From sequence record PV390658.1: DNA of 64,000 nt. One strand, 5' to 3'. Below the pieces are notes generated by a model. The model saw nothing but the letters and a program-made list of their open reading frames with translations. It had not been told where the DNA came from and ran no database searches. Origin of the DNA: Escherichia phage vB_EcoM_P54. Position 1 is the stretch's first letter; the number at the start of each line of letters is the position of its first letter. This document shows, one piece after another, positions 4,495 through 20,948 of the stretch. The translations under genes were made by a program, and so were the position numbers.

Positions 4495-5058
4495 TTAACC
4501 TAAAAAGTCTTTTAAATTGCGTTCTGTGATGTTTGCCGTGATTTTATCCAGCAAGTCACAAAACACGGAACTATCACCGCTATTCTGTACAATTTTCGCC
4601 ATACTTAACAAATCATCGTCAACATAGCCTAAATTGCGGTTAGTTGCATCTGGTACAAAGAAAGGTGCATACATCGCACTAAATTTCGTCGAGTGAAGGC
4701 CAATAATCCAACCTTTATCAAAGTGTCCGGTAAAGCTGGCGATATTGCTCATGTTGTCACAAGAATAATCATCCTCTAGCTCTTCCTCTGGGATATCCAT
4801 CTCAATGACAATTACGTCCTGCGTTTCCATTTGGAAAGCTGCCGTAATAAGCCCAGATTCTAAAGCGTTTTGAATGCAGCGTTCACGAATGTAAGAATCT
4901 TCCTCATCTTCCAGACATTCCGTTTTGATAATCTTGTTCATTGGGTAAACGTAGAAACAATCATCCATGTATGAGCAGTTCCAGATTCCTTCCGGCTTGT
5001 CGCCACCATTCAGCAGGTTTACAAAGTTTTTGAGGGTAGTTCCGTGATAGCATTTCAT
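4495..5058 (-). CDS. early protein (187 aa), candidate PARP/diphtheria-toxin-like ADP-ribosyltransferase
   Basis: N-terminus MKCYHGTTLKNFVNLLNGG matches the HG[ST]-x3-N-h-x2-hL NAD-binding motif of H-Y-E class transferases; Tyr cluster CFYVY and acidic stretch VIVIEMDIPEEE downstream; motif-level only. Confidence 0.3.
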   Translation of the reverse strand: MKCYHGTTLKNFVNLLNGGDKPEGIWNCSYMDDCFYVYPMNKIIKTECLEDEEDSYIRERCIQNALESGLITAAFQMETQDVIVIEMDIPEEELEDDYSCDNMSNIASFTGHFDKGWIIGLHSTKFSAMYAPFFVPDATNRNLGYVDDDLLSMAKIVQNSGDSSVFCDLLDKITANITERNLKDFLG

Positions 5059-5138
5059 TTTTGAATCTCCAGTTTAGGATTTAGTGGTAAAGCTCTTTAT
5101 CTGGGGCTTACTTTATCGAACTATAAGCCCCTTGTAAA
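5059..5138 (-). promoter_or_regulatory. type B cassette: promoter embedded in a palindrome
   Basis: Minus strand: TTTACA (5133-5138), 17-nt spacer that is the 5-prime arm GGGGCTTA, TAAAGT (5110-5115) in the loop, 3-prime arm TAAGCCCC, then AGATAAAGAGCTTTACC and SD. Confidence 0.5.
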
Positions 5139-5143
5139 GTACT

Positions 5144-5392
5144 TTATTTAACTTTTTTTGAGAAAATTAGTTTAACTGCAACTGTAGGAATCTCGTCAGC
5201 GGTTGTAACCAGCATTACTTTTTGAGTGACCAACTTATAACCGTTCTTTGCAGCGTATGCGGTAAAACGGTTGACATTGTAACTATAAGTTTTTGGTGTG
5301 TTGTCTGGCATGTGGTAAAGAAAAGGTTTACCCAAGTTTTCTTCTTGTGTCAATAGTCGGCAGGTATCAGGGACATTGAAATAGTTCATCAT
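5144..5392 (-). CDS. hypothetical early protein (82 aa)
   Basis: ATG at 5392 abutting a type B cassette. Confidence 0.6.
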   Translation of the reverse strand: MMNYFNVPDTCRLLTQEENLGKPFLYHMPDNTPKTYSYNVNRFTAYAAKNGYKLVTQKVMLVTTADEIPTVAVKLIFSKKVK

Positions 5393-5472
5393 TTTTTAAT
5401 CTCCTAGTTTAAGGACTGTGTAAAGCTCTTTATCTGGGGCTTAAGATACCAACTTTTTAAGCCCCTTGTAAA
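5393..5472 (-). promoter_or_regulatory. type B cassette
   Basis: TTTACA (5467-5472), GGGGCTTAA...TTAAGCCCC palindrome with TATCTT in the loop, SD. Confidence 0.45.
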
Positions 5473-5484
5473 GTACTTTATTAC

Positions 5485-5682
5485 TTAATTTTTGACAACT
5501 TTTAAAACTGCAAGATAACCTAAGCAATAAGAATCACCGAAGAGAGTTCTACCCATGAAAGAATCCTCTTTGATATCCTTTGCAGTGACAGTTTTTTCTA
5601 CGCCGTGGGAAAGGACTACATCACCAACTTTGATATCTTTGATGTGTGTTGTTTCAATGGTTAAGCCGTTAATAATAGCCAT
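5485..5682 (-). CDS. hypothetical early protein (65 aa)
   Basis: ATG at 5682 abutting a type A cassette. Confidence 0.55.
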   Translation of the reverse strand: MAIINGLTIETTHIKDIKVGDVVLSHGVEKTVTAKDIKEDSFMGRTLFGDSYCLGYLAVLKVVKN

Positions 5683-5776
5683 TTTAGAATCTCCTAGTTT
5701 AAGGACTTTACTTAGTGGGGAAGGTCATTCCCTCCCCGTTGATTAGTAATTTAATCTATCTAAAAATCAGTGTCAA
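5683..5776 (-). promoter_or_regulatory. type A cassette
   Basis: TTGACA (5771-5776), 17-nt spacer, TAAATT (5748-5753), hairpin and SD. Confidence 0.6.
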
Positions 5777-5783
5777 CATCTTT

Positions 5784-6188
5784 TTAAAGTTCTGCGTAGA
5801 TTGCATCACAGACATCACGGAAATCATGATTTGTTAAGTTACGTTGTAACCAAGTGGCAAAGAAATCAGCGATTGCAAAATTAGCGTCATACTCGACGGA
5901 TAGCCACACTTTAACAGCAAATCGGAACATCTTTAAATCCAGCTCTTTATTCATTACCTTTGATTTGCCTAACATGTCGGCCATCTCATGTTGTGCACCG
6001 TCTAGCGTGATACCGGCTGCAACGTCAGCCAATGAGTTTTTTACGCTTTCAACGTCTAAGATAACACTTTGAATCTTCCCAATAATGTTTTGCAGTGTTT
6101 CATCCGGTGCTGCTGATGTGATAACATTAATCCGGTTAACGGTCAAACGTGCTTTTAAGATAGATAACTCACGATTATTAATAGCCAT
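5784..6188 (-). CDS. hypothetical early protein (134 aa)
   Basis: ATG at 6188 abutting a type B cassette. Confidence 0.6.
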   Translation of the reverse strand: MAINNRELSILKARLTVNRINVITSAAPDETLQNIIGKIQSVILDVESVKNSLADVAAGITLDGAQHEMADMLGKSKVMNKELDLKMFRFAVKVWLSVEYDANFAIADFFATWLQRNLTNHDFRDVCDAIYAEL

Positions 6189-6268
6189 TTTTGAATCTCC
6201 AATTTAGGATTTAGTGGTAAAGCTCTTTATCTGGGGCTTACTGTACAGACTTATAAGCCCCTTGTAAA
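6189..6268 (-). promoter_or_regulatory. type B cassette
   Basis: TTTACA (6263-6268), 17-nt spacer, TACAGT in the loop of the GGGGCTTA/TAAGCCCC palindrome. Confidence 0.45.
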
Positions 6269-6273
6269 GTACT

Positions 6274-6546
6274 TTATGCTAAATGCAGCTTTTTGCCTTT
6301 TACTATGATGTAACTTGATGCGCTATTGCCGCATACATCTTGATAAATTCTACGCAAACGGCCTTCGTAGTATACTTTCCAGCTAGTTGGAATCTTTTTC
6401 CCGTATCCGGTAGCAGTTTTTTGGAATCCTGCAAGTTGCCAATCCAAAATGTGCTGTTCAGCTTGTAAATCCTCGAAGTGCATTACACCGTTCACATAGT
6501 GGCGTAGGGTTACGTTTAAGGTGCGACCGTTGTTAGTAGTGTACAT
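6274..6546 (-). CDS. hypothetical early protein (about 90 aa)
   Basis: ORF-track start 6588 is a read-through of cassette sequence (KVLKLGDSKM); ATG at 6546 with AGGAG SD. Confidence 0.5.
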   Translation of the reverse strand: MYTTNNGRTLNVTLRHYVNGVMHFEDLQAEQHILDWQLAGFQKTATGYGKKIPTSWKVYYEGRLRRIYQDVCGNSASSYIIVKGKKLHLA

Positions 6547-6571
6547 TTTTGAATCTCCTAGTTTAAGGACT

Positions 6572-6730
6572 TTATTTTGACAGTTCACTAATTAAGACAT
6601 CAAAGATTATATCATTATCTGCTACAGTTGCAACACCAGTGATATAATCAATTTCTAAGATAACAACAACTTTCGTACATAAACCGTCATCTATATCATT
6701 CCAGACAACTTTATCACCTGCACAAAACAT
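6572..6730 (-). CDS. small hypothetical protein (52 aa, MFCAGDKVVWNDIDDG...)
   Basis: Not in the ORF track (under 60 aa); ATG at 6730 sits exactly at the conserved position after a complete type A cassette. Confidence 0.45.
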   Translation of the reverse strand: MFCAGDKVVWNDIDDGLCTKVVVILEIDYITGVATVADNDIIFDVLISELSK

Positions 6731-6825
6731 TTTTAGAATCTCCTAGTTTAAGGACTTTATTTAGTGGGGAAGGTCATCCCCTCCCCGTTGATGTGTAATT
6801 TAACCTATCTAAAAATCAGTGTCAA
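6731..6825 (-). promoter_or_regulatory. type A cassette
   Basis: TTGACA (6820-6825), 17-nt spacer, TAAATT (6797-6802), hairpin and SD. Confidence 0.6.
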
Positions 6826-7154
6826 ACACTTTGTTTCCGTTTGCTCAATTCTTGAACAATTACAGCGTGATAGTCTTTCAAGTCACTGATGTTTAAAGCA
6901 TTTATCAGAGAATTATAATCATCAACTAACTGGAAATCATCTTTGAAGATGTCACTTATCTGATAGGTTTTCGCTTTATATCTGAAGCTCATCTCTAGCC
7001 GCTTTATTTGCTCATCACTTAAACGCCCTAGAAAGCTCTCTACAAGGTTATTGCTAACTTGCTGTGTGATTGCCTTATTTGCTAGATTATAGGCTTTATA
7101 TGCCTTATATAGCGCGAAAATGGCAATGATTGCAGTGATACCAGTCATTAACAT
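6822..7154 (-). CDS. hypothetical membrane-anchored protein (110 aa)
   Basis: N-terminal hydrophobic helix MLMTGITAIIAIFALY; start overlaps the upstream stop (ATGTTAATGA). Confidence 0.55.
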   Translation of the reverse strand: MLMTGITAIIAIFALYKAYKAYNLANKAITQQVSNNLVESFLGRLSDEQIKRLEMSFRYKAKTYQISDIFKDDFQLVDDYNSLINALNISDLKDYHAVIVQELSKRKQSV

Positions 7155-7444
7155 GGTGTTTCCTCTTTACGTGATACTTTGCCATTTACAGTTATCTCAT
7201 AGGATTCTAATAAATCGCTTTTAGACTTTACAGGACTTTTAAAAGTATCATCATAAACATTAATTTGCAATACAGGCTTTTTATACTCCCTGCAACTATT
7301 CCATAAGCAAATCACTACACGACGGCCTTTTATTTTGCCGTGTAACCATTCCATAACATCATGACTATTCCTTGATGTCTCTATAAAATCAATTTTGTTG
7401 AGTAATTTGCTAAGGTTTTCTCTAACTTTATTTGATAATTTCAT
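7148..7444 (-). CDS. hypothetical early protein (98 aa)
   Basis: ATG at 7444 abutting a type B cassette. Confidence 0.55.
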   Translation of the reverse strand: MKLSNKVRENLSKLLNKIDFIETSRNSHDVMEWLHGKIKGRRVVICLWNSCREYKKPVLQINVYDDTFKSPVKSKSDLLESYEITVNGKVSRKEETPC

Positions 7445-7527
7445 TTTAGAATCTCCTAGTTTAAGGGCTTTATTTGATAAATCTCTCTATCTGGGGCTAT
7501 CATATCCGCTTGTTAGCCCCGTGTAAA
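7445..7527 (-). promoter_or_regulatory. type B cassette
   Basis: TTTACA (7522-7527), 17-nt spacer, TATGAT (5/6 match) in the loop of the GGGGCT/AGCCCC palindrome. Confidence 0.5.
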
Positions 7528-7536
7528 GAAATCTAT

Positions 7537-8049
7537 TTAGTTCTTAAAGATATTCATCACTGAATCTTTCAACGATTCCAAACGTTCTAATACTTCAGTT
7601 TCTGCGTCTGAATTGTTCACCTCTTCTTTTAGTCTATCCTCTAAATCATCGCCGTCACGATAGCACCAATCGAAAGCATAACCAAGATAAAAACTTTCTA
7701 AAACCGTGTTACCGTTTGCATCCACAACTTTCGCGGCAAGGTTGTACTCTGAAGCCTCTAAATCTCTTTCTAGTTCTTTTTGTAAGCTTGCGTAAGCCTC
7801 TTTTGATGGATTTTCCCGGCCTTGTTTTGCATAGTCACTTGAAAGCTGTTTAAGGCTGTAATGCAAAGGGATTGCATATTTAAAATCATTATGCTGACAG
7901 TTAGGATTTTTAACAGTCACACCGCCTTGATGGTCGTTTGTAAACTCCCAATTATCGAGATTATGGCTTGCTTCGTAGAAATTTACCGCTTCGTAGATGA
8001 TGGAAAATTTTTCTTTTACAACTTCAAAGGTAGCGTCTACAGTTTTCAT
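7537..8049 (-). CDS. hypothetical early protein (170 aa)
   Basis: ATG at 8049 abutting a type B cassette. Confidence 0.6.
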   Translation of the reverse strand: MKTVDATFEVVKEKFSIIYEAVNFYEASHNLDNWEFTNDHQGGVTVKNPNCQHNDFKYAIPLHYSLKQLSSDYAKQGRENPSKEAYASLQKELERDLEASEYNLAAKVVDANGNTVLESFYLGYAFDWCYRDGDDLEDRLKEEVNNSDAETEVLERLESLKDSVMNIFKN

Positions 8050-8131
8050 TTTTGAATCTCCTAGTTTAAGGATTGAGTGGTAAAGCTCTTTATCTGGGGC
8101 TTAAGATATCAGCTTTTAAGCCCCCTGTAAA
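8050..8131 (-). promoter_or_regulatory. type B cassette
   Basis: TTTACA (8126-8131), GGGGGCTTAAAAGCTGATATCTTAAGCCCC palindrome with TATCTT. Confidence 0.45.
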
Positions 8132-8139
8132 GTACTTTA

Positions 8140-8397
8140 TCAGATTAAATTGCCAGTTAATGATAAGTGCATTTTATAGCCTTTTTTGGTAAACACGTTT
8201 ACTTTACCGAGTGATTTTACACCTTTAAAAAGGTTGTTTGAATTACGTTTTAAGGTTAATTGTTTATCAGCCTTCACGCCCCATCTTACAGTGTATTGTT
8301 TTCCGTTGTCAACCACTTTTCCGCCTAACTTTTTCGCCATGATGCGAGCGTCATCACGAGTTTTTGCAGGAATTACAACGTTTTTGATAATAGCCAT
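8140..8397 (-). CDS. hypothetical basic protein (about 85 aa)
   Basis: ORF-track start 8412 is TTG inside the cassette; ATG at 8397 after SD. Confidence 0.5.
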   Translation of the reverse strand: MAIIKNVVIPAKTRDDARIMAKKLGGKVVDNGKQYTVRWGVKADKQLTLKRNSNNLFKGVKSLGKVNVFTKKGYKMHLSLTGNLI

Positions 8398-8478
8398 TTT
8401 TAAGTTCTCCAATTTAGGATTGAGTGGTAAAGCTCTTTATCTGGGGCTTACTTTATCGAACTATAAGCCCCTTGTAAA
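8398..8478 (-). promoter_or_regulatory. type B cassette
   Basis: Near-identical to the cassette at 5059-5138; TTTACA at 8473-8478. Confidence 0.5.
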
Positions 8479-8486
8479 GTACTTTA

Positions 8487-8867
8487 TCAGTTAATTTTGA
8501 AAATTGTCACATAGCCGTCACTGCCGATTATTTGAGACACTCCAGCTTTTTCCACTGAATAGCCCATATTTTCAAGATGATAAACAGCATCATCATAACC
8601 ATATGCGCCACCCTGATAACGTCTCTTATCGCATCTTATCAGGTTTTTACCACGTCCTGCAAGTGCATTCAGTACAGCTTTTTCACTTGATAGCGTACCA
8701 TCTAACATGGTTGCTGTGTAATGGTTGATTCTATTCCCGTTTACATCATACTTAAAATTGAATGCGTGAACAACAATCAATTTGCCGTTAAATTTTTCAT
8801 CAAGTGACTTCTCCAGTGCGTTGCGGAAGTTGTCTTTGTTAATGAATTTCGGTGCACGATAAGCCAT
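8487..8867 (-). CDS. hypothetical early protein (126 aa)
   Basis: ATG at 8867 abutting a type B cassette. Confidence 0.6.
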   Translation of the reverse strand: MAYRAPKFINKDNFRNALEKSLDEKFNGKLIVVHAFNFKYDVNGNRINHYTATMLDGTLSSEKAVLNALAGRGKNLIRCDKRRYQGGAYGYDDAVYHLENMGYSVEKAGVSQIIGSDGYVTIFKIN

Positions 8868-8950
8868 TTTTGAATCTCCTAGTTTAAGGGTTAATTTAGT
8901 AAAGCTCTTTATCTGGGGCTTAAGATATCAGCTTTTAAGCCCCCTGTAAA
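8868..8950 (-). promoter_or_regulatory. type B cassette
   Basis: TTTACA at 8945-8950; palindrome GGGGGCTTAA...TTAAGCCCC. Confidence 0.45.
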
Positions 8951-8957
8951 GTACTTT

Positions 8958-9164
8958 TTATATATCGTAATAGTAAACCGCTGTCTGTTTTATATGTCGC
9001 TTTGTATTCTTCGTAAGGTAGCAATTAGAATTGATTGCCGTTTCTACATAGTTGCAATAATCAGCTTCTGATATTCTACGCCATGCGCCGCACACTTGCA
9101 TGTAAAAACGTTTTACCTTTGTATTAACGTTGGTTGTAACCATCAATTCACGGCTGTAAATCAT
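8958..9164 (-). CDS. hypothetical early protein (68 aa), first gene of the leftward array
   Basis: ATG at 9164 after TAAACTGGAGATTTAAAA SD region. Confidence 0.5.
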   Translation of the reverse strand: MIYSRELMVTTNVNTKVKRFYMQVCGAWRRISEADYCNYVETAINSNCYLTKNTKRHIKQTAVYYYDI

Positions 9165-9213
9165 TTTTAAATCTCCAGTTTAGGAAGTAGGCTTGTTTGC
9201 CTGTCTGATGCAA

Positions 9214-9242
9214 ATACTAAATAACCATAGTCAGAGAGTCAA
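9214..9242 (-). promoter_or_regulatory. candidate sigma70-like promoter for the leftward early array
   Basis: Minus strand TTGACT (9237-9242), 17-nt spacer, TAGTAT (9214-9219). Confidence 0.4.
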
Positions 9243-9404
9243 TAGGAATTTTAAAAATATTTTTGCAAAAAACTGTAATGAAACGGGCGCACGCGACTAC
9301 CACAAAACAGAACTACAATCAAGAATTATTTTTCAATCCGCTACAAATTTTTCTGTTGACTTTTCTTTTCAGATGTGGTAGCCTTGTGAGAAATGGCGAC
9401 ATCC

Positions 9405-9600
9405 CCACCTGCACCCACCTACCTGCACAATTCTAAAATGATTTTTCTTGCCCGACCTGAGCGGGGTCTGCACGTTTTGAAAATGAAAAAGCTCTTTGGA
9501 GATTACCTGCACAGTTTGAAAATGAATTTTCTCTTTGGAGTTCAAAATTTTCTCTACAGATTTCTGTCCAGAACTCTACCTGCACAATCCTGAAATGAAA
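9405..9600. repeat. four degenerate direct repeats, core ACCTGCACA-N-TTYTRAAATGA
   Basis: Copies at about 9418-9440, 9466-9490, 9502-9527 and 9575-9600; CTCTTTGGAG also repeated at 9491 and 9531. Confidence 0.6.
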
Positions 9601-9671
9601 AAGCCCTCCTTACCTGAAAAATTTACCAGATAAGAAAGGCTTAGCCTATTGTGAATATTCTACAGAGTTTC

Positions 9672-10457
9672 TTAGTTCTTTGCGTCTAAGAAGGTTACTT
9701 CCGGTGAAGAGAAAATCTCCTCAACATCCTCATCAGTTCTTGCATAGATATATGTATCTGCATCGCTGCCAAATGTTACTGCAATTCTGTGATTGCTCTT
9801 CGACAGGTGGGTAACTAGAGCGTTACTTAGAGACATCTTTTCAACCGGAGGGTTACTTTGATGTATCTTGCCTTTTCTTCGTCTGAAGAGGGTAACTACA
9901 TCATTAGTGAACACTACTACACCAGCAAAGTATTCTGGTTCACAGTAGTTCTTCCAACCTGAGCGTAACTTGTGGTACATCTCTCCTTCATAGACATACA
10001 GATACACATCTACACTCTTCATCACCTGATTAATGATGACTGTGACGGCTTGAGAGTCTAGTCCACCGATACCTGCACCAATCATAGGTAACCCAACTTT
10101 CTTCAACTGATTGACTTCACAGTATCTGTTAAGCTGTTTCAAAGATGACTCTAAAGCACTGTATCGGGCATCTTTACCAGTCTTAAGCTGAGTGTAAAGG
10201 TTAGCTATACGGCCTTGTTCTAAACGTGCTACAGAGAAATTGCCTAGTAAATTTTCACAGGGTTTGTGACCTATACCACCTGCATACAGATAGACTTCTG
10301 TATCAGTCTCATATGCTTTTGGGTAAAGTTTAGAAATCTTGTCAGCGATACCTGCACCCATTAAATTCATACAGTTGCAACCGTGACCAATAATATCAAA
10401 CTTACCTTTATCAAATGCGGAGAAGATATCCCCATTGATGATTTTTACAATACCCAT
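9672..10457 (-). CDS. macrodomain-like protein (261 aa), putative ADP-ribose binding or hydrolase
   Basis: N-terminal VKIINGDIF...FDIIGHGCNCMNLMGAGIADKI and GLPMIGAGIGGLD resemble macrodomain motifs GDIT...DAIVNAAN...GGGV and ISTGIYG; extra C-terminal region of about 110 aa. Confidence 0.5.
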   Translation of the reverse strand: MGIVKIINGDIFSAFDKGKFDIIGHGCNCMNLMGAGIADKISKLYPKAYETDTEVYLYAGGIGHKPCENLLGNFSVARLEQGRIANLYTQLKTGKDARYSALESSLKQLNRYCEVNQLKKVGLPMIGAGIGGLDSQAVTVIINQVMKSVDVYLYVYEGEMYHKLRSGWKNYCEPEYFAGVVVFTNDVVTLFRRRKGKIHQSNPPVEKMSLSNALVTHLSKSNHRIAVTFGSDADTYIYARTDEDVEEIFSSPEVTFLDAKN

Positions 10458-10658
10458 TTAGCATCTCTCCCAAGATTCTTTATCTTCTGAAGGTTTTACA
10501 CGTTGTCCTTCGTGGTCTACCCAGATACATCCACAACCTTCACAGATTACTGGCATTGCATAGCCAGCTTTAAAGTCATCTTCAGTGATAAGACCTTTTA
10601 AGTCACCTGTATCACGTCCGAACATTTCGATAGCACAGTCTTTGCAGAAGTCAGCCAT
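10458..10658 (-). CDS. small Cys-rich protein (about 66 aa)
   Basis: CKDC ... CEGCGC motifs; start moved to ATG at 10658 with AAGAGG SD. Confidence 0.5.
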   Translation of the reverse strand: MADFCKDCAIEMFGRDTGDLKGLITEDDFKAGYAMPVICEGCGCIWVDHEGQRVKPSEDKESWERC

Positions 10659-10878
10659 GAATAATTGCCTCTTGAATGATGATACCTTTACCACAACGAC
10701 TTTTAAAGTCTTCTAATGGTTCAGAGATAAAGCCACGTAAACAGTCAGTGAATACTAAGTTCTTCCGGTAAGCTATCACATCATTTGCTGTAAATGGTAT
10801 GACCTCATTTCGTCCAATGAACACCGCTGAACTGATAAGTTTCCGTGTCTTTTTATCTCTGGCTAGTATTACTTTCAT
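10651..10878 (-). CDS. hypothetical protein (75 aa)
   Basis: ATG at 10878 with GAAGGT SD. Confidence 0.5.
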   Translation of the reverse strand: MKVILARDKKTRKLISSAVFIGRNEVIPFTANDVIAYRKNLVFTDCLRGFISEPLEDFKSRCGKGIIIQEAIIHG

Positions 10879-11477: not shown

Positions 11478-11479
11478 AA

Positions 11480-12256: not shown

Positions 12257-12275
12257 TTAACAATCTCCTGAAATG

Positions 12276-12296: not shown

Positions 12297-12308
12297 TGTA
12301 TCTTAACC

Positions 12309-12773
12309 TTAACTGAGGACTTTAGCAAGGATATTCGCAGCCATCGAAGAAGCTTTTGCAGCAGCAACTACGCCAGCTTTGACAGTGCCATCCTTAATAG
12401 CAGATACCGTTGCAGCATCAGTAAAGAGGTAAGTGATTGTTTTAGAACCACTTGTAAAGGAAAGCATAAGAGTAGTTTCCAGATTGAAAGAGCGATACGG
12501 AGCACCTTCTTTAACGATACCTTCAGCACCTAACTCTGAAGCCTTACCCATATCATAGATAGTCATCAGGTTTTCTTTGTGTGCAGTCGTTGAACCAGCA
12601 CCTTTTACGTGCTTTTTAACATTCAACAATGCACGGTATTCACGAATGCTGCCATCAGCTTTTACATTAACAGCACGAAAAATTTTACCTTCAAAATTAC
12701 CTTGAATCATTTTACGAACTACTTCAGATTTGTTTGCCGTATCGTCCAGTGCTACCGTAATGATATTGTTCAT
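12309..12773 (-). CDS. hypothetical protein (about 154 aa)
   Basis: ORF-track start 12788 is TTG; first ATG at 12773. Confidence 0.45.
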   Translation of the reverse strand: MNNIITVALDDTANKSEVVRKMIQGNFEGKIFRAVNVKADGSIREYRALLNVKKHVKGAGSTTAHKENLMTIYDMGKASELGAEGIVKEGAPYRSFNLETTLMLSFTSGSKTITYLFTDAATVSAIKDGTVKAGVVAAAKASSMAANILAKVLS

Positions 12774-12784
12774 AAGTTTTTCTC

Positions 12785-13480
12785 TCAATGTTTAACTAAC
12801 ATGGTTTTAATGTGTGGAAGGATTCTGTTTACCTTCTGAACATTCTTCTCTGTATCTTCTATAAAACATACTATATTAAAGTAAGGTAGAATGCAAGACT
12901 GAATCATCCTCACTTTCAAACTTTCTGCACTTATAGAGTTAGTTCCAAAACCACGCATAAAAAGCATGTAATCATGCTCTATGTAATGCCTTAAAAACAT
13001 CTCAGTAGGTACTCTCTGAGATTCACCCCTCGCTGTCAAGAGTCCAATGGCAGCATGATTAGAGATTGCATCAATAATATTGAAAACATATGTTGGTTTT
13101 GCACTTACAGAGTCAAGCAAATTAGTGTACTGTGAAAATGACCCATCAATCAGTTCCGTTGAGCAATCTTCGTGATTAAAATTTGTAAGAACACCATCAA
13201 TATCTGCTAAGATGAGGTTACCTTTTTCTACAAGGTCTTTATTGACTATGACTAAACTGTCACGTCTTACACCTATAGATTGCCCAGTCTCTTTATCCAC
13301 AACGTTCACAATTGGTTGTAATGTGTGGAACTCTTCAAGTGAACATACAACCTCTCTTGCAATGTCTTCAAAATCCCTGCACTGTTCTGGAGTCCATACA
13401 CAGTAATCGAGACCTAACTCATGAGGATGCAAGTCATAAGCATGGCACAATACTTCATCAGACTTTCTTAATTTTTTCAT
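12785..13480 (-). CDS. HAD-superfamily hydrolase-like protein (231 aa)
   Basis: Motif LILADIDGVLTNF matches the HAD motif I (hhhhDxDGhL). Confidence 0.5.
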   Translation of the reverse strand: MKKLRKSDEVLCHAYDLHPHELGLDYCVWTPEQCRDFEDIAREVVCSLEEFHTLQPIVNVVDKETGQSIGVRRDSLVIVNKDLVEKGNLILADIDGVLTNFNHEDCSTELIDGSFSQYTNLLDSVSAKPTYVFNIIDAISNHAAIGLLTARGESQRVPTEMFLRHYIEHDYMLFMRGFGTNSISAESLKVRMIQSCILPYFNIVCFIEDTEKNVQKVNRILPHIKTMLVKH

Positions 13481-14006: not shown

Positions 14007-14065
14007 TGGTTCTCCTGTTTAGTTTATCGTGACAACAATTATACAGCACTCTGCACAAAATACAA

Positions 14066-14095
14066 ATAAAAAAGGCCGCCGAAGCAGCCTTTTAA
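14066..14095 (-). terminator. hairpin terminator after rIIB
   Basis: AAAAGGC-loop-GCCTTTT inverted repeat with flanking A and T runs. Confidence 0.5.
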
Positions 14096-14106
14096 GAAAT
14101 TACTTA

Positions 14107-15216
14107 TTAGATTTCACGTTTACGTTGAGAGATAAGTTCACCAGCAGTGCCAACGATGACATGCAAAGCTTCAGTCTTACCGTCCCATGCTTTCAGCACT
14201 TTACGCTGATTATCAACGATTGCTGCAACTTCATAACGGGATGAGCGCATCTTCATATCGTTGTAATCAGTCGGAACAGATACAACATCTCGTGGATGGA
14301 CACGAACCTTCAGGATTGTATCACCTGAGAAGCAACGAACATAATCCCAAGCACCAACATGAAGACCCTGAGAGCAAGTTACGTTACGGTTGTTGTCAAC
14401 CATCCAACGTGGCATTTCTACAATGTTACCCAAATCATTAGGTACTTTGTAGGTGTGGGAGTCAACCAACTTGCCTTCACGAGTAGAGACTTTCTTCCAA
14501 CCAATGATGTAACCTTCTTCATCAATTTCAACATCAAGGTGAGATACGAATCCCCAAAGTTGTTCTACAGAATCTTTAGATGGGTTTTCCATCAGTTTTT
14601 CGAAGAACATTACAAGTCGTTCAAAACCTTTATCACCAGTCTTCATCATGTGAAGAATACGGTCAACCAGAGTAGAACGCATCTCAACAGCACCGTAGAA
14701 TAACTTGTCACCTTTGATTGTGATAGCACCCTGAGTGAAGTTTTCGATAGACTTACGAATGTTCATCAGTTCAAATGCTTTCTTGAACTCACCTTTCACA
14801 ACATGAACTACAATTTCTTGATAGTTCGGATGAGTAGACTCAACAATTTCAGATTCTGAACCATAAGTCATAATTACAGAGTCACCAGTAATCATGTACT
14901 CAATCTTGTCATCTTTCTGCATAGCTTCGTGCAGTTTATTTACTGGAACTTTCTGTACAGTGTCTTTAACAACCTTTTCAACTGGTTTTCCAGCTTTCTT
15001 TTTAACTGACTTAGCAACTTGCTTCAAAGTCTTCTTAGCTGCTGTCGAAGTTGCCTTTTTCTTACCCTTTAAGGTTGCTTCATGACGCTCTACAGCACGA
15101 CCAACTGAACGGGTTGAAGTGTTGAACTTCTGTGCAATAGCTGTTTTAGTCAGCTTGCCTTCTTTAACCAGTTTGTAAATTTCTGCGTCAATCTGTGCTT
15201 TAGTTTTAGTAGTCAT
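14107..15216 (-). CDS. rIIB: rIIB-like protein (369 aa)
   Basis: C-terminal VRVHPRDVVSVPTDYNDMKMRSSRYEV and TCSQGLHVGA match T4 rIIB as I recall it; adjacent to rIIA. Confidence 0.8.
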   Translation of the reverse strand: MTTKTKAQIDAEIYKLVKEGKLTKTAIAQKFNTSTRSVGRAVERHEATLKGKKKATSTAAKKTLKQVAKSVKKKAGKPVEKVVKDTVQKVPVNKLHEAMQKDDKIEYMITGDSVIMTYGSESEIVESTHPNYQEIVVHVVKGEFKKAFELMNIRKSIENFTQGAITIKGDKLFYGAVEMRSTLVDRILHMMKTGDKGFERLVMFFEKLMENPSKDSVEQLWGFVSHLDVEIDEEGYIIGWKKVSTREGKLVDSHTYKVPNDLGNIVEMPRWMVDNNRNVTCSQGLHVGAWDYVRCFSGDTILKVRVHPRDVVSVPTDYNDMKMRSSRYEVAAIVDNQRKVLKAWDGKTEALHVIVGTAGELISQRKREI

Positions 15217-15260
15217 CTTATTACTCTCTCTTGTTAGTTAATAAATCATTTTGTAAGGCT

Positions 15261-15290
15261 ATTCTAAGGGGCTTCAAAGCCCCTTGTCAA
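15261..15290 (-). promoter_or_regulatory. candidate promoter for rIIB
   Basis: TTGACA (15285-15290), 18-nt spacer that is the palindrome AGGGGCTTTGAAGCCCCT, TAGAAT (15261-15266). Confidence 0.45.
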
Positions 15291-15295
15291 ACACT

Positions 15296-17662
15296 TTAAT
15301 CGTAAATTGTAGTCCCTTCTGGAACACACTTCACATCAAAGCCTAAGAACTTACTCACTTCGATGGGTGACACTTTATTCCAATCTAAATGAGAAAGCAA
15401 GAAGTTTTCTTGTTTTCTTTTTGAAAGATAGTTTGTCACCTTAATGACCATACGGTCACCAGCTTTCTTGATTTTCTTGTACAGCTTTGTATCGTTGTCA
15501 AGGCATTCTTTCAAAGTTTGCAACCTGCTAACAGTGTAAGTGTATGCAAACGGTGCAGCAACGTATTGGATTTTACCAAACATTGCCTCAACAGCATCTT
15601 CATTACCTTCTAAGAAGATAGTTTTGTTTGTGTCTCGTGAATAGCAATAACCACGAGAAATCTTCCTGTTATTGAACGTAAAGTTTCTGGCAATAATCCA
15701 ACTGCTTGTCAGGTCTAGGACACCATTCATATAGATACGTGTCATATACCTGTTATGATTAATCCAGTGAACATCAGTTAAGCTGTCGTTCAAGAGCTTC
15801 TCATCTACTTCAATCCAGTCTTCTGGTATCTTTTTCCAATTTGCTTTTCGGAAAACATATACTGTCTTTCCAATGACATTGGCAACTGACTTAGCTACAT
15901 CTTCTGGAGATGAGCAAAAACATTCGCCATCAACTGTGTCGCCTACTGCCTTAATATAAAGCTGAGGCTCTTCAATCGTATCTAAGTCTTCTGACACCTC
16001 TTTGTATGAAGCTACACCTTCTGCTGGAACAGCTTTCCAAAGTTTTACAACACCTCTTACAGCTTCTTTACGCTGATAATGATGTTCCTTATCAGACATC
16101 TTCACAATCTTTAACAAGCTTTTATCAAGTTTGTGCAGATTGATTAGGTTGTCTAACTCTTTTTCAGTCGAGAATACAAAGACGATACCATTGTATCTGT
16201 GAAACAGACTAGACTCACTGGCATAGTCTCGACATGCACCACGCAGAATCTGATTGCGTCCTACAGTCTTCTCAGTACCATTTTTATTGCGACGGTCGTT
16301 TATAACAAACAAAAACTGCTCAATTTGACTTTTACGCATTGCGCCAAAGATATTGAACATACTTGCCTCTTGAGTGTAGGAAAGTGATGTTGCACGAATC
16401 TTACTCTCTAAAGAGTTGAACTTGACATAAGCAACTGGGTCATAAAGATAATCTACTTTAGGGATGTTGTTTCCGTTTCTATCAACCTTAATATTACCTT
16501 TGCCGTCACGTTCATAGATGACTGAGCCGTCTTCTGCGTAGATAATCCCACGACGAATGTTTAGTAATTCTTCTTCCAGAGAATCAAGCTTAACACCTCC
16601 CCACTCTAGCTTTGGACACACAGCATTAAACATCTCTCGTGAGTTTAAACGTAACTCAGCATAAGCCTGTGCAGCATCCATGAGTGTAGGTTGGCTATTA
16701 ACTTTCTTGATAACATCCTTTGTAATCGCTTCAGTTATCTTTTTAGTAGCCTCAATGATAACATTTTTTGTCGTATCATTCATCTGCAATGCTTCACGAG
16801 AAGCTGCAATAGCAACTGAACCAATAGGCATGTAGATGTTTACAAGGTCTACGCTCCTACGGAAAAATTCTGGCAAGACTTTGAAGAAATCATCTCCAAG
16901 TAATGCTTCCATGTTGACTGGATAGGCGATATTACCCATCACCACATTAAACTCTGTCCTGTTACCACTAGAACGCCAGCTTTGCTTATGAATCATGGCA
17001 TCATAGACACCTTCTTCACGGGCAATGACATTCATATCTGCTAATACATCGTCATACTCGATGTTACTTTCTGGTTTTACAGCAAAGTATGAGTATACAT
17101 GACCAGCTTCTTCAAAGAACTTTGAGATACGGTGGTCAGCAACTGCTACACGTACAGCTAAACCATTAGGCTCTTTTGTTGAGTTGGTGGTCAGCTTAGT
17201 TACTTGAGGGATACCATTCTCAAGGTAAACAGAGTACTTATTAACAACACCATCAACATAACTAGATACTGTGAATGACTGAGCAATTGCAAATGGAGAT
17301 TTTGAACCGATACCCATTGCACCAATGTAGTCATTAGAGTCATTCTTCGTAGAAGCCCCGTAATTTAGGTACAAACTCATAACTTTATCATGAGTCAATC
17401 CAGTTCCAAAATCACGAACTTCAAAGTAAGGTTCAAAACGAGTAGGTAAATGCACATGGAACGGGATGTTCTCTTTTCCAGCTTCTTTCTGAGCATCTAC
17501 TGCGTTACATGACAGTTCACGAATAACTGCCCTTTCTTTAAAGGTATATACACCAGAACTCAAAAGGCTGAACATTTCAGGTGTCATTGTAATCTGTGCT
17601 TGAGACGTCTCTAAAGAAGTTGAACTCTTAATCACTTCTGCGTGGTCGTTTACCATGCGCAT
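15296..17662 (-). CDS. rIIA: rIIA-like protein (788 aa)
   Basis: N-terminal GHKL-ATPase-like motifs (ELSCNAVDAQ, RDFGTGL, GAMGIGSKSPF); size and position upstream of rIIB. Confidence 0.75.
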   Translation of the reverse strand: MRMVNDHAEVIKSSTSLETSQAQITMTPEMFSLLSSGVYTFKERAVIRELSCNAVDAQKEAGKENIPFHVHLPTRFEPYFEVRDFGTGLTHDKVMSLYLNYGASTKNDSNDYIGAMGIGSKSPFAIAQSFTVSSYVDGVVNKYSVYLENGIPQVTKLTTNSTKEPNGLAVRVAVADHRISKFFEEAGHVYSYFAVKPESNIEYDDVLADMNVIAREEGVYDAMIHKQSWRSSGNRTEFNVVMGNIAYPVNMEALLGDDFFKVLPEFFRRSVDLVNIYMPIGSVAIAASREALQMNDTTKNVIIEATKKITEAITKDVIKKVNSQPTLMDAAQAYAELRLNSREMFNAVCPKLEWGGVKLDSLEEELLNIRRGIIYAEDGSVIYERDGKGNIKVDRNGNNIPKVDYLYDPVAYVKFNSLESKIRATSLSYTQEASMFNIFGAMRKSQIEQFLFVINDRRNKNGTEKTVGRNQILRGACRDYASESSLFHRYNGIVFVFSTEKELDNLINLHKLDKSLLKIVKMSDKEHHYQRKEAVRGVVKLWKAVPAEGVASYKEVSEDLDTIEEPQLYIKAVGDTVDGECFCSSPEDVAKSVANVIGKTVYVFRKANWKKIPEDWIEVDEKLLNDSLTDVHWINHNRYMTRIYMNGVLDLTSSWIIARNFTFNNRKISRGYCYSRDTNKTIFLEGNEDAVEAMFGKIQYVAAPFAYTYTVSRLQTLKECLDNDTKLYKKIKKAGDRMVIKVTNYLSKRKQENFLLSHLDWNKVSPIEVSKFLGFDVKCVPEGTTIYD

Positions 17663-17690
17663 AATACTTTCCTCTTAATTTACTGTTGAA

Positions 17691-17867
17691 TTACTTATTA
17701 AACATTTTACCAGAACCGCCACACATAGGGCAACAACCTGCTCTTGTATAACCTTCTCCATTACAGTAGTCACATTTTTTGTGCTCTGCAAAGTACTTAC
17801 AAAGAAGGTAAACAAACACTGCTACACTACCAAGTGATAGCAAAATTTCTATCCAATATGCTTGCAT
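17691..17867 (-). CDS. small membrane protein with C-terminal CxxC-x-CxxC zinc-ribbon (58 aa)
   Basis: Not in the ORF track; ATG at 17867 after GAGAGGTGAG SD; hydrophobic N-terminus then CDYCNGEG...CCPMCGGSG. Confidence 0.4.
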   Translation of the reverse strand: MQAYWIEILLSLGSVAVFVYLLCKYFAEHKKCDYCNGEGYTRAGCCPMCGGSGKMFNK

Positions 17868-18184
17868 GACTCACCTCTCATATTCTTGTAAAGGATAAAG
17901 CTTCTGTCATGGACGATACTTGTAGACACTGCAAAGTTACTTTCAAGCATCTGTTTGTTTGGATTGTAGAAGCTCTCTTTAAACTCGTCAAGTGCAAATT
18001 GGTGATTGTCTGGAAGACCTTTTACACAGACCTTTATTGTGATTGCTGCTGCAATCTTACCAGTCAGTTCTTCTTTAGCTGCTACTAAAATTTTGTTAAG
18101 GAACTTATGACCATTTTCAGGTTTCTTAATGTTCTCCCAGCGTTCTTCTAAGACAATATTGATGTTCATTTCTTTGATTTTCAT
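17849..18184 (-). CDS. hypothetical protein (111 aa)
   Basis: ORF from the track; first gene after the terminator at 18202-18222. Confidence 0.5.
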   Translation of the reverse strand: MKIKEMNINIVLEERWENIKKPENGHKFLNKILVAAKEELTGKIAAAITIKVCVKGLPDNHQFALDEFKESFYNPNKQMLESNFAVSTSIVHDRSFILYKNMRGESCKHIG

Positions 18185-18201
18185 AATCTTCTCCAGAAAT
18201 T

Positions 18202-18222
18202 AAAAAGGCTCCCGTAGGAGCC
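18202..18222 (-). terminator. rho-independent terminator after the NAMPT-like gene
   Basis: A-run then GGCTCC-CGTA-GGAGCC hairpin. Confidence 0.6.
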
Positions 18223-18237
18223 TCTTATCATATACTT

Positions 18238-20019
18238 TTAAAGCTGCTTGTCAATATTATTTCGAATATCACCAAGAGTTGTGTAACCGAACTGCTCAGA
18301 GTCACTAAAGACTAAACGTAAAGCACAAGCTGGATGTTCAAGCACATCTGCAAAGCTCTGGAATCCATAGCCATCTACAGCTTTCAGCTTATCGCCATCC
18401 CACATAGGTGCTACACCACCAAAAGCAGACTTCTTAACACCGCTATCTGTTTTAGGGTCTTTTGCAAGCATAATCTCTTTACCACCAATGCTTGCAAGAG
18501 TTGCTTTGACAGCAAATGCAAAGGTGTCACGAGTCATGTACTGGTAAGTGTAAGAACCTACACCAAACACTACGTTAGAGCTTGCAAAACCCATTTCATA
18601 CAAACGCTTCAGGATTTCGTTTGCACGTTCCAACGTGATAGAGTCACCATAGATAAGGCCAATGTGCTCATCCAGTACCTTAAAGCCTTTAGAGTTGATA
18701 GTCCCTCCAAAGATGTTATACAGGGTCTTAATAGCCCCATCAATCTCTGCTACAGGACGTGTTACAACGTTTGCAGAGCCGTTGATGTAGGCATCTTTCA
18801 GAAGCACTGTATCAGCTACTTCAAAGTCTTCTCTGTCAACCACCATTTCATAGCCTTCTGTACGTAACCACCCAGCCATAATATAGTGAATGTCTTCAAG
18901 ATTCATGTTCAGAACAGCATTCAACATTGTGTCGCTGGCTTCCAGCTTGCTTAGGTGTTCGTAATAAGCCTTTTTAGCACACTCTAAGTGGATTGCTTTA
19001 TAGCCTGTGACAATATGTACAGGGTCTCCAGAGTCAGGACGAATTACCAGTTTACCATCACGTTCCATAATCTCTTTACGGAGTTCTGGTAATATAACTG
19101 ATACAGTTCTCCAGAAGTTATAAGTATCTGAAACAACACTTGCAATACCAGTTGGGTAAGTTTCTGTTAAGAAACGACGGAAGGTTTGTAACTCACCTTT
19201 AAAACGTCTTTCATCTTCAATTAACTCATTACCACCTTCCCAAGCAATGTTTGCACACATTACAGAGTGTTCAGTGGCTGGCACAGAACTACCAATATCA
19301 GAGATTGGGTAGGACTGTCCATAGATGCGTTTAGCTGTATACACAGCAGGGAAGCTGTCAGTTCCTTTAAAGCTGGTTAAGTGACCTACAGCGTTAAATG
19401 CGTCATCAGTAAAGCCAGACATACCACGCATAGCAAAGTCATGGCACTGATAAGGTAAATGCAAGTCGTTGTCACAAGTAAGGTCAGCCCACTTCTTACA
19501 GATACGTTTGTAGTGCAATGCAATAGTTGCAATGGTACAAGCCTTCCAAATCTCAGCAGAGAAAGCATCTTCCAGATACCCCGCTACCCAATGGAAACCT
19601 GAAACAGTGTTCTGGAAGACAATCATTGGCACACGCATAGGGACAACTGTACCTTCTTCTACAGCGTAGACTTCAACTGGTAGATAACCTAAGTCGTGGA
19701 GTGCTTCCCAATGTTCTCGACCAATAGCATCTTTACCCAGAACGCCGTTCATGACTTCTAAGATTTCATCAATTGCTTCTTTTTTGTCACGTTCGAAGAA
19801 GGTGGCGTTCCAGTGGTCTATCAGGTAATCTTTAACAAAACGTTGAATACCAAAAGCAACTACACCGTCAATTGCTAAAGGGCTGTTAAACCATTTATCA
19901 CTACGTGGTGTCAGGTTGAACATTAGGTACTCTGTTGCACTAGGATACTGATAAATATGGCCAGATTTGTAAGCATCCGCGTTTAAACCTGCTGGTACTG
20001 CATAAAGTGATTTAGTCAT
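18238..20019 (-). CDS. nicotinamide phosphoribosyltransferase family protein (about 593 aa)
   Basis: N-terminal NADAYKSGHIYQYP resembles the NAMPT DSYK-x-THY motif; ORF-track start 20070 is TTG, start moved to ATG at 20019. Confidence 0.7.
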   Translation of the reverse strand: MTKSLYAVPAGLNADAYKSGHIYQYPSATEYLMFNLTPRSDKWFNSPLAIDGVVAFGIQRFVKDYLIDHWNATFFERDKKEAIDEILEVMNGVLGKDAIGREHWEALHDLGYLPVEVYAVEEGTVVPMRVPMIVFQNTVSGFHWVAGYLEDAFSAEIWKACTIATIALHYKRICKKWADLTCDNDLHLPYQCHDFAMRGMSGFTDDAFNAVGHLTSFKGTDSFPAVYTAKRIYGQSYPISDIGSSVPATEHSVMCANIAWEGGNELIEDERRFKGELQTFRRFLTETYPTGIASVVSDTYNFWRTVSVILPELRKEIMERDGKLVIRPDSGDPVHIVTGYKAIHLECAKKAYYEHLSKLEASDTMLNAVLNMNLEDIHYIMAGWLRTEGYEMVVDREDFEVADTVLLKDAYINGSANVVTRPVAEIDGAIKTLYNIFGGTINSKGFKVLDEHIGLIYGDSITLERANEILKRLYEMGFASSNVVFGVGSYTYQYMTRDTFAFAVKATLASIGGKEIMLAKDPKTDSGVKKSAFGGVAPMWDGDKLKAVDGYGFQSFADVLEHPACALRLVFSDSEQFGYTTLGDIRNNIDKQL

Positions 20020-20040
20020 CTTTTTAATCTCTCTCAAAAT

Positions 20041-20056
20041 GGGGCTTTGAAGCCCC
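20041..20056 (-). promoter_or_regulatory. intergenic hairpin between the Prs-like and NAMPT-like genes
   Basis: GGGGCTTTGAAGCCCC palindrome preceded by TTTATA and followed by ATTTTGAGAGAG SD region. Confidence 0.45.
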
Positions 20057-20066
20057 CTATAAAGTT

Positions 20067-20948
20067 TCAATCAATGGTAATTACAGTAACTTGGGCATAA
20101 TGTGTTAAGCCACGGTCTTTAGCTTCCCCTAAAGAGTTTGTAGTGTAGATATGGTCAATACCATTGTCAAGTAAGTTTTCAACACCTTTAGAGAAAATGC
20201 CATGAGTTACATAGAGTTCCACACGTTTTGCACCTGCTTCACGAAGATGTTTAGCTGCTTCTATGAAGGTTCGACCTCCATCACAGATGTCGTCCAGAAT
20301 CATGACAGTTTTATCTGTCAAATCAACATCATCGAGGATTCGCATACCGGTAATCTCACCAGTCTTAAGGTTACGCACTTTAGACATTGTGATGTATGGT
20401 TTATCCACCTCTTTAGCGGTCTCTGCAATCTTCTTAGCAGCACCTGCATCTGGGGCTACTAAGTAATCAACCAGTGGGTCATTCGCATAGTGGACTGCAA
20501 TCTCCTTTTGGGGGATACTCTGGAAGCAGTTAAACAGGTTATCTGGTACATAACTGTGAGAGTCAACTGCACAGACTGCATCGAAACCCATTGCATTAAC
20601 CTGTTGTGCAAACACTTTCAAAGCTGCTGCATCACCTTTAAACATGTGACGGTCGTAACGTGCATTTGGCAAATAGTAAAAGATGACAGTCTTCATAGCA
20701 AACTTATGGGGCACTAAGTTGTCAACCGCCTCTTTAGCAAGTGCCACAGCAAACAATGTATCTTTATCATAACCTTTTACAATCATAATCACATTGTTGA
20801 TAGATGATGCTGCATAAGCAGTGAAGTCAACAAACTCTGGTGAAAAGTGTCCACCAATCTCACCAGAAGGGAATTGGATGATGTTAAACTCTTCTTCATG
20901 AGTCCCTTTAGTTGGTGAATGAACTGTAACACGGATAGATGTTTTCAT
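20067..20948 (-). CDS. ribose-phosphate pyrophosphokinase (Prs) family protein (about 293 aa)
   Basis: Type I PRTase PRPP-binding loop VMILDDICDGGRT; start moved from TTG at 20963 to ATG at 20948. Confidence 0.7.
   Translation of the reverse strand: MKTSIRVTVHSPTKGTHEEEFNIIQFPSGEIGGHFSPEFVDFTAYAASSINNVIMIVKGYDKDTLFAVALAKEAVDNLVPHKFAMKTVIFYYLPNARYDRHMFKGDAAALKVFAQQVNAMGFDAVCAVDSHSYVPDNLFNCFQSIPQKEIAVHYANDPLVDYLVAPDAGAAKKIAETAKEVDKPYITMSKVRNLKTGEITGMRILDDVDLTDKTVMILDDICDGGRTFIEAAKHLREAGAKRVELYVTHGIFSKGVENLLDNGIDHIYTTNSLGEAKDRGLTHYAQVTVITID

Follow-up and report, generated by a model that had tools for sequence, protein, structure and literature searches.

Depletion of nicotinamide adenine dinucleotide (NAD+) is among the commonest anti-phage strategies of bacteria, and the Felixounaviruses, to which the phage described here belongs, serve as therapeutic and typing phages. 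We have analysed a stretch of 64,000 nucleotides from Escherichia phage vB_EcoM_P54 (PV390658.1), hereafter termed the window, where a flagged region between positions 4495 and 20948 encodes the two enzymes of the NAD+-rebuilding pathway NARP1, a macrodomain (macro) protein and a stand-alone protein with the predicted fold of an ADP-ribosyltransferase (ART). NARP1 was discovered in the BASEL phage Bas63 (JohannRWettstein, Felixounavirus), from which genes 79-80 were deleted, and it rescues this phage from defences that deplete NAD+, among them SIR2-HerA, with its first enzyme, Adps, pyrophosphorylating ADP-ribose (ADPR) and its second, Namat, coupling the pyrophosphorylated product (ADPR-PP) and nicotinamide to NAD+ (Osterman et al., bioRxiv 10.1101/2024.02.11.579819). 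NAD+ synthesis and rescue have been demonstrated for the enzymes of Bas63 and SPbetaL1 (bioRxiv 10.1101/2024.02.11.579819; PMC12774641), and the preference of Namat for ADPR-PP over phosphoribosyl pyrophosphate (PRPP) has been assigned to a 'selectivity clamp', which consists of the aromatic residues of a clamp helix and a stacking residue in a clamp loop (PMC12774641).

Two extensions of this pathway have been described. Defence proteins containing a RES domain (aRES) convert NAD+ and phosphate into nicotinamide and ADPR-1''-phosphate (ADPR-1''-P), the latter of which is not usable by NARP1, and the operon variant NARP1-AP carries an added Poa1p-like macro phosphatase, Adpp, by which ADPR is regenerated and aRES defeated (Osterman et al. 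2026, bioRxiv 10.64898/2026.01.28.702374). In the survey of its distribution, which relied on a macro gene being located within two genes of NARP1, NARP1-AP was found in 15% of NARP1 phages, and the accompanying Table S1 contains Pakpunaviruses, whose macro gene is listed as NARP1-AP, and Vibrio phages, whereas phages of Escherichia or Salmonella, or with Felix in their name, are missing from it (bioRxiv 10.64898/2026.01.28.702374). A further phage enzyme, the RyR-domain glycosidase RyDEP, generates ADPR for NARP1 from 2'/3'-cyclic ADPR (bioRxiv 10.64898/2026.05.28.727677) and provides, like Adpp, a precedent for enzymes that feed the pathway, with a fold that is unrelated to the proteins of the window.

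Our analysis leads us to favour, with moderate confidence, an explanation in which the 16-kb stretch harbours no single system and instead comprises three separately transcribed units of the early arm, NARP1, an Adpp-type macro protein acting in trans and a stand-alone ART-fold protein, all of which would handle NAD+ or ADPR. In the underlying mechanism, a defence NADase of the host would split NAD+ into ADPR and nicotinamide, whereupon, by orthology to Bas63, Adps would pyrophosphorylate ADPR with ATP and Namat would couple ADPR-PP to nicotinamide to regain NAD+. Homology and gene order suggest that the macro protein would convert ADPR-1''-P generated by aRES into ADPR in trans, letting NARP1 still rebuild NAD+, and the protein with the ART fold is probably a binder or user of NAD+ or of an ADPR derivative, its gene having been kept alongside NARP1 and the macro gene over long evolutionary distances. 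NARP1 in this genus and the link between macro proteins and NARP1 (2026) were known before, whereas the dispersed and extended form of the macro protein was not counted in the published survey, and the ART fold is assigned here to an uncharacterised phage family.

NARP1 and a distal macro gene

The phage is a Felixounavirus of the subfamily Ounavirinae, and over the 17 kb around the described genes its DNA is 92-95% identical to that of many FelixO1-like phages from Escherichia, Salmonella and Shigella. A sequence-only reading of the window had placed a candidate ART, a macrodomain-like protein and a Prs/NAMPT pair in one leftward block, and its coordinates proved accurate, with 4495-5058 (187 amino acids), 9672-10457 (261 amino acids) and the Prs/NAMPT pair all located on the minus strand. 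Their common orientation is uninformative, since the entire arm between about 3 and 38 kb reads leftward throughout, as evident from the GC skew and the map of open reading frames (ORFs). The proposed block holds with respect to this shared strand and not as an operon, as the features are separated by strong minus-strand hairpins of terminator-like form, which argues for at least three transcription units. All hairpin and promoter calls are consensus matches only (Table 1).

Table 1. Location of the described features in the window
Feature	Position	Strand	Remarks
Stand-alone ART-fold protein, 187 amino acids, phage family phrog_3303	4495-5058	-	Predicted fold; PHROG without assigned function
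Terminator-like hairpin	9642-9601	-	Directly 3' of macro gene; 17-pair stem, then T run (consensus scan)
C-terminal extension of macro protein, about 100 amino acids (including stop codon)	9672-9986	-	Without Pfam or NCBIfam match
Macrodomain, residues 1-157 of 261-amino acid protein, Poa1p/TARG1 clade, putatively Adpp-type	9987-10457	-	PF01661, E 2e-7; phrog_335 'phosphatase'
Terminator-like hairpin	12297-12280	-	Consensus scan
Terminator-like hairpin	14093-14070	-	3' of rIIB (consensus scan)
Terminator-like hairpin	18226-18203	-	Directly 3' of Namat; 10-bp stem, 5 GC pairs, T tail (consensus scan)
Promoter-like site	18254-18227	-	Overlaps hairpin after Namat; TTGACA-16-TATGAT, score 11/12 (consensus match only)
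Namat (nicotinamide ADPR transferase, NAMPT-like), second NARP1 enzyme	18238-20019	-	593 amino acids; ATG at 20019
Adps (ADPR pyrophosphokinase, Prs-like), first NARP1 enzyme	20067-20948	-	293 amino acids; ATG at 20948 after GAGAG ribosome-binding motif

The Prs/NAMPT pair is NARP1, with an activity that we transfer by orthology from Bas63, so that the pathway is already known within the same genus. Both genes are located next to each other on one strand, separated by a gap of 47 nucleotides, which is the adjacency by which NARP1 is recognized, and the limits of their coding sequences agree with those of the sequence-only reading and with the annotated gene lengths in Bas63. Adps contains the Pfam domains Pribosyltran and Pribosyl_synth and belongs to phrog_619, with an identity of 79.9% to Bas63_0079 and of 95.3% to its counterpart in phage skuden. 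Namat contains the Pfam domains NAPRTase/NAMPT_N and is 96.6% identical to Bas63_0080 and about 47% identical to the Namat of SPbetaL1; its top sequence matches in the PDB are 9w5w, 9w5x and 9ke8 (E ~1e-128 to 1e-104), which are deposited as nicotinamide phosphoribosyltransferase. In an alignment with SPbetaL1 Namat, the catalytic His (H245) and Arg306 are invariant and the aromatic residues of the clamp helix, F392 and Y396 in SPbetaL1, are Tyr and Tyr in the window, while the Lys-Trp pair of the clamp loop is identical to Bas63. The genes surrounding Adps and Namat are the neighbours found in Bas63 in full synteny, and there is thus nothing of substance that would distinguish the two loci with respect to genus, gene order, flanking genes, catalytic residues and clamp residues. 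In function, the enzymes of this Prs/NAMPT pair are Adps and Namat instead, which would synthesize NAD+ from ADPR and nicotinamide. The proposal that the phage defends its NAD+ pool finds experimental backing in the orthologous genes of Bas63 (bioRxiv 10.1101/2024.02.11.579819).

Adps is more diverged from its Bas63 counterpart (80% identity) than the adjacent Namat (97%), which suggests mosaic exchange. The gap between both genes contains a GC-rich hairpin (20041-20057, minus strand; GGGGCT-TCAA-AGCCCC, then ATTTT), and this is the place where a homing endonuclease, which is absent in the window, has been inserted in phages skuden and Arno18. An insertion of about 100 amino acids in Namat was considered as a novelty and rejected, since it is also present in the Namat proteins of Bas63, Pakpunavirus and Vibrio phages.

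The assignment of 9672-10457 to a macrodomain-like protein was confirmed by its Pfam match (Table 1), and the protein is 97% identical to the product of Bas63 gene 95. Searched against the PDB, the profile of its family finds TARG1/OARD1 (E 2e-18) and yeast Poa1p (6lfu, E 5e-16), the latter of which is an ADPR-1''-phosphate phosphatase whose native substrate arises from the Tpt1-type RNA repair pathway (PMC9503650). An alignment with the validated Adpp of Vibrio phage Gary (KNV71_gp137) covers the whole domain with 27% identity (E 7e-14), and the motifs NC..MGxGIA, N..Q and GLPxxG are invariant and common to the macro protein and the Adpp family. Searches by tblastn with the window protein and with an orthologue 94% identical to Adpp each retrieved about 2,700-2,850 phage records with near-identical breakdown by organism. 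The macrodomains of TARG1/OARD1 and DarG belong to the same clade and provide the top profile matches in the PDB (E ~1e-18), yet the catalytic Lys and Asp of TARG1, which we take to be K84 and D125, with a chain offset of +6 fitting both, are not retained. HMM (hidden Markov model) alignments place Gln and Gly/Ala at these positions in the window protein, where they are Gln90 and Gly131, as well as in Adpp. A glycohydrolase of the TARG1/DarG type is therefore unlikely and we have rejected such a function on account of these active-site residues; the match to the NCBIfam model of DarG (48 bits, E 8e-13) is far below its cut-off of 250 bits.

The relationship to Adpp is further reflected in the gene order of other lineages, where a homologue of the macro gene resides within the NARP1 operon, in the arrangement Adps-x-Namat-x-macro in the Pakpunavirus phipa10 and Adps-macro-Namat in the Vibrio phage 184E37.1. 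The macro protein thus most likely is, as judged from its homology, an Adpp-type ADPR-1''-phosphate phosphatase that would participate in NAD+ rebuilding and not in a cycle of protein ADP-ribosylation, and its combination with NARP1 appears as a dispersed and extended version of NARP1-AP, in line with the gene order of related phages. The macrodomain family and the active-site motifs are those of NARP1-AP in Vibrio phage Gary. In contrast to the operons of Pakpunavirus and Vibrio phages, the macro gene of the window and of the examined Ounavirinae is located about 8 kb from NARP1 in another transcription unit and encodes about 100 additional residues at the C-terminus. Macro proteins of 260-270 amino acids are annotated in other Ounavirinae that we checked, the BLAST match of the Arno18 protein extends to residue 182 and some metagenomic homologues are extended as well, whereas the operon-embedded versions of Pakpunavirus and Vibrio phages contain 148-159 residues and lack the extension.

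A stand-alone protein with a predicted ART fold

The protein encoded at 4495-5058 shows no sequence match in Pfam, NCBIfam or the PDB, and its predicted structure displays the split beta-sheet of the ART fold, with the RNA 2'-phosphotransferase KptA/Tpt1 as closest structural match. A first AF2 (AlphaFold2) model, which was based on a shallow alignment, was poor (pLDDT, the predicted local distance difference test, of 60) and served as a hint only, and a fold search in BFVD revealed no characterised viral match. By an exhaustive profile search we have obtained 304 representative relatives, which are mostly stand-alone proteins of 170-220 amino acids. In 66 diverse members of the family, the positions H5-G6-T7, W26, S29, Y36 and the loop D97-x-S99-C100-x-x-M103 are invariant or nearly so, with H5, as part of the H-G-T motif on strand 1, and Y36 on strand 2 being near-invariant and D97 being invariant in the loop preceding the strand at 108-110. 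Weak matches to Pfam PARP models are found in five of these 66 proteins.

In a comparison with E. coli KptA by hhalign, only a stretch of 17 residues around the HGT motif was aligned (probability 2.7%), and it is consequently the fold on which a relationship to KptA is based. This alignment superimposes the motif with the HGT of KptA at residue 103, which marks the start of the NAD+-binding lobe, and the phage protein begins at this point. It differs from Tpt1/KptA by the lack of the RNA-binding lobe and of conserved Arg residues, by a helical C-terminal extension (128-187) and by the family-specific invariant loop DDxSCxNM. The catalytic tetrad of Tpt1 is Arg-His-Arg-Arg. Orthology to Tpt1 was rejected, since the N-terminal RNA-binding lobe is missing and no Arg is invariant in the family. 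The ART fold is well supported by structure prediction and resembles the NAD+-binding lobe of KptA/Tpt1, and NAD+ or an ADPR derivative is the probable ligand or substrate of the protein. The earlier description as candidate ART thus stands at the level of the predicted fold. The catalytic triad of the ART superfamily is H-Y-E or R-S-E, and no Glu is invariant in the phage family. A literature search combining Felixounavirus and ADP-ribosyltransferase returned nothing on this protein.

Felixounaviruses carry two alleles of the gene, the window type, found in about 41 records with 89-99% identity, and a type of about 55% identity, found in about 190 records including that of Bas63, whose copy is bas63_0107, and the genes flanking both alleles are about 95% identical throughout. 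A mosaic replacement of alleles is also seen in a metagenomic contig (IMGVR_UViG_3300045988_024527, L005), which pairs an ART allele of 91% identity with a macro allele of 41% identity. In GU169904.1, a record named Staphylococcus phage SA1, an ART-fold gene of the Felixounavirus type occupies positions 133002-133448, which suggests that this record contains FelixO1-like sequence.

Co-occurrence of the genes and competing explanations

Within Felixounavirus, Namat, macro and ART genes are near-core, being found in about 260, 243 and 233 of about 277 related records, respectively, and conservation inside the genus for this reason says little. The 372 phage records with homologues of the ART family comprise members of Felixounavirus and of other Ounavirinae, 78 Pseudomonas records of Pakpunavirus and a group of Vibrio myoviruses of about 137 kb, and IMG/VR loci, for which narrower alignments were used, derive almost only from the Felixounavirus, Kolesnikvirus and Pakpunavirus lineages. 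Co-conservation was investigated in one genome per group, examined in full or in large parts. In Erwinia phage vEam_W_28 (Kolesnikvirus, Ounavirinae) and Pectobacterium phage Arno18 (Ounavirinae), NARP1, the macro gene and the ART gene are all present in the synteny of the window. In the Pseudomonas phage phipa10, the ART gene is found about 12 kb off on the opposite strand, and in 184E37.1, an unclassified myovirus, it is about 11 kb off across the ends of the record, if these are joined. Between 3.0 and 22.5 kb, the minus strand contains 29 ORFs with a length of 80 amino acids or more, of which only four, at 4495, 9672, 18238 and 20067, are represented by homologues in phipa10 as well as in 184E37.1; these are exactly the genes that had been flagged beforehand, with rIIA and rIIB not among them. 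With NARP1 and the macro gene counted as one known unit, the flagged ORF had a chance of about 1 in 26 of being the sole other survivor. The co-occurrence of the features is thus real.

The setting of metagenomic ART genes offers a different perspective. Within few kb, their recurrent neighbours encode GP88 (PF17338), SprT-like, LPD11 and KTSC proteins (L063, L067, L068, L074), which we take to be stand-alone forms of the effector domains found in phage polyvalent proteins, and this environment hints at early effector genes for host takeover or anti-defence rather than at a metabolic operon. A Nudix-PncA-NadD-PncB-NadE cluster has a distant member of the ART family (E 1.4e-23 to the family profile) on its downstream side, at a distance of about 0.4-5 kb. 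The arrangement is found at 4702-10597 of locus L061 on a phage-like contig of 72 kb (JAMQYI012678827.1 of GCA_024712465.1), and the cluster encodes Nudix, isochorismatase (nicotinamidase-like), NadD-like, NAPRTase (PncB-type) and NAD synthase proteins and looks like a complete Preiss-Handler route of NAD+ salvage that is distinct from NARP1, NARP2 and NARP3 as published. A further search for homologues with the ART family returned mostly Felixounavirus proteins.

Several observations weigh against the explanation that we favour. A distance of about 7.8 kb, with 14 or more ORFs and several terminator-like hairpins, separates the macro gene from NARP1 and places it outside the two genes that delimit NARP1-AP, within which the Pakpunavirus and Vibrio homologues are located; it was therefore not counted in the published survey (bioRxiv 10.64898/2026.01.28.702374). 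The nearest relatives of the macro protein outside Ounavirinae are from T4-like phages, to which it is closer (34-37% identity) than to validated Adpp (27-28%), and as no Prs-like neighbour is seen in the rows of these relatives, more than one function may exist within the family. The C-terminal extension of about 100 residues, for which no family is detectable in Pfam or NCBIfam, is without explanation. With respect to the ART family, there is neither an invariant Glu on the expected catalytic strand nor an invariant Arg among the 66 members, and catalysis is hence not assured. Its gene never adjoins NARP1 or the macro gene in the genomes examined, and in 14 metagenomic ART loci, profile and tblastn searches of the available flanks of up to 10 kb revealed neither a macro nor a Namat homologue. 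Finally, counterparts of the primase-helicase, polymerase, baseplate and tape-measure genes of the window are found with 25-30% identity in Pakpunavirus and the Vibrio phage, which defines these lineages as distant relatives instead of independent samples, and co-retention could be a consequence of plain vertical inheritance. A putative functional link between the ART-fold protein, NARP1 and the macro protein is thus partly supported and contradicted at the level of the locus: co-conservation, which had been suggested as a check, holds at the genome level in every cultured lineage examined and breaks down in the 14 metagenomic loci.

In light of these observations, it is possible, though less likely than not, that the genes have no functional link and are unrelated accessory genes descending from one ancestral FelixO1-like lineage, with the ART-fold protein maybe being a non-catalytic binder or decoy. 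Besides the relatedness of the cultured lineages that carry the ART gene, the near-core status of all three features in Felixounavirus (about 233-260 of about 277 records) and the metagenomic loci, this would be consistent with the three separate transcription units and with the abundance of the macro family, which, with 2,854 records, is far commoner than the cases linked to NARP1. It would leave unaccounted that, of the 29 ORFs of the early arm, it is only these four that survive in both distant lineages, where rIIA and rIIB do not, that they were flagged a priori, with the low chance given above for the ART gene as single other survivor, and that a distant member of its family adjoins a different NAD+ salvage cluster.

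Along the lines of the sequence-only reading, the ART-fold protein and the macrodomain could form a pair in which the former ADP-ribosylates a macromolecule of host or phage during takeover and the latter reverses or limits the modification, with NARP1 offsetting the cost in NAD+. ADP-ribosylating models for such a role of the ART are Alt, ModA and ModB of T4, and also AcrIF11. The predicted fold with its conserved H-G-T and Tyr, the position of the macrodomain in the TARG1/DarG/Poa1p clade with its weak NCBIfam match to DarG, the co-retention of both genes across lineages and the presumed effector-domain neighbours of metagenomic ART genes are all compatible with this idea, as are the two 55%-identical ART alleles in otherwise near-identical genomes, a pattern that resembles an arms race. 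We nevertheless consider it unlikely, because the macro protein lacks the catalytic Lys and Asp of TARG1/DarG and shares its active-site residues with Adpp, because the macro gene is found inside the NARP1 operon in two lineages and not next to the ART gene, and because both genes are never adjacent, with no macro gene near any of the 14 metagenomic ART loci. Of the earlier claim that the phage manipulates host ADP-ribosylation, the predicted ART fold is the part that persists and its sole basis, whereas the macro protein points towards NAD+ rebuilding instead.

It is highly improbable that the genes constitute an RNA repair module protecting tRNAs from anticodon nucleases of the host, in which a KptA/Tpt1-like ART would use NAD+ to clear 2'-phosphates from broken tRNA, the macro protein would clear the by-product ADPR-1''-P and a Pnkp-like phosphatase (12785-13480) would heal the RNA ends, since, despite the structural match to RNA 2'-phosphotransferase, the origin of the native substrate of Poa1p in that pathway (PMC9503650), the location of a HAD phosphatase annotated as 'polynucleotide kinase' between NARP1 and the macro gene and the RNA ligase genes flanking the NARP1-AP operon in Vibrio phage Bennett, ORF 4495 encodes the C-terminal NAD+ lobe only, with neither RNA-binding N-lobe nor an invariant Arg for the Tpt1 tetrad, no RNA ligase or 2H phosphoesterase was found among the scanned ORFs of the window and a P-loop kinase motif is missing from the HAD protein.

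Returning to the explanation in which NARP1 acts together with an Adpp-type macro protein in trans, its consequences differ for the two accompanying proteins. If the distal macro gene encodes an Adpp, the share of NARP1 phages with NARP1-AP would exceed the published 15%, surveys restricted to macro genes within two genes of NARP1 would undercount this variant and Felixounaviruses should resist RES-type defences. That the ART-fold protein is a third accessory of the NAD+ conflict, forming a dispersed regulon with NARP1 and Adpp, is a tentative proposal and distinctly unlikely. In such a regulon, the protein might convert another defence-made ADPR derivative into a substrate of NARP1, or it might ADP-ribosylate and disable NADase effectors of the host, and FelixO1-like phages, PAK_P1-like phages and related Vibrio myoviruses would possess a set of four genes for NAD+ counter-defence, of which two or three have been recognised. 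By analogy with Adpp and RyDEP, a role in feeding the pathway is conceivable, no more. Should the ART-fold protein participate in the same conflict, the NAD+ toolkit of phages would gain a new enzyme family; otherwise, the genes would be ordinary conserved early genes beside a pathway that is already described.

Other genes of the arm

The minus-strand ORF at 12785-13480, which is annotated as 'polynucleotide kinase' in relatives, contains LILADIDGVL, a motif of HAD phosphatases, and its match to Pnk PHROGs is confined to their phosphatase part (residues 88-219), with no P-loop and no match in Pfam or the PDB. It constitutes a second phosphatase between NARP1 and the macro gene that is conserved in Kolesnikvirus and Arno18. 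The adjacent ORF at 12309-12788 on the minus strand encodes a protein of 159 amino acids (phrog_2267), for which a homologue of 35% identity is located at 4589-4855 of locus L069, about 5 kb from an ART-family gene, on a metagenomic contig that is unrelated to the window; this homologue shows a weak match to the Pfam family WYL_2.

A need of NAD+ for an NAD-dependent DNA ligase was considered and rejected, since the ligase of the phage (43619-44758) is ATP-dependent. Downstream of the ribonucleotide reductase genes, the minus strand encodes a SegE-like GIY-YIG homing endonuclease (31886-32383) and a MazG/PRA-PH-like pyrophosphohydrolase (30886-31641).

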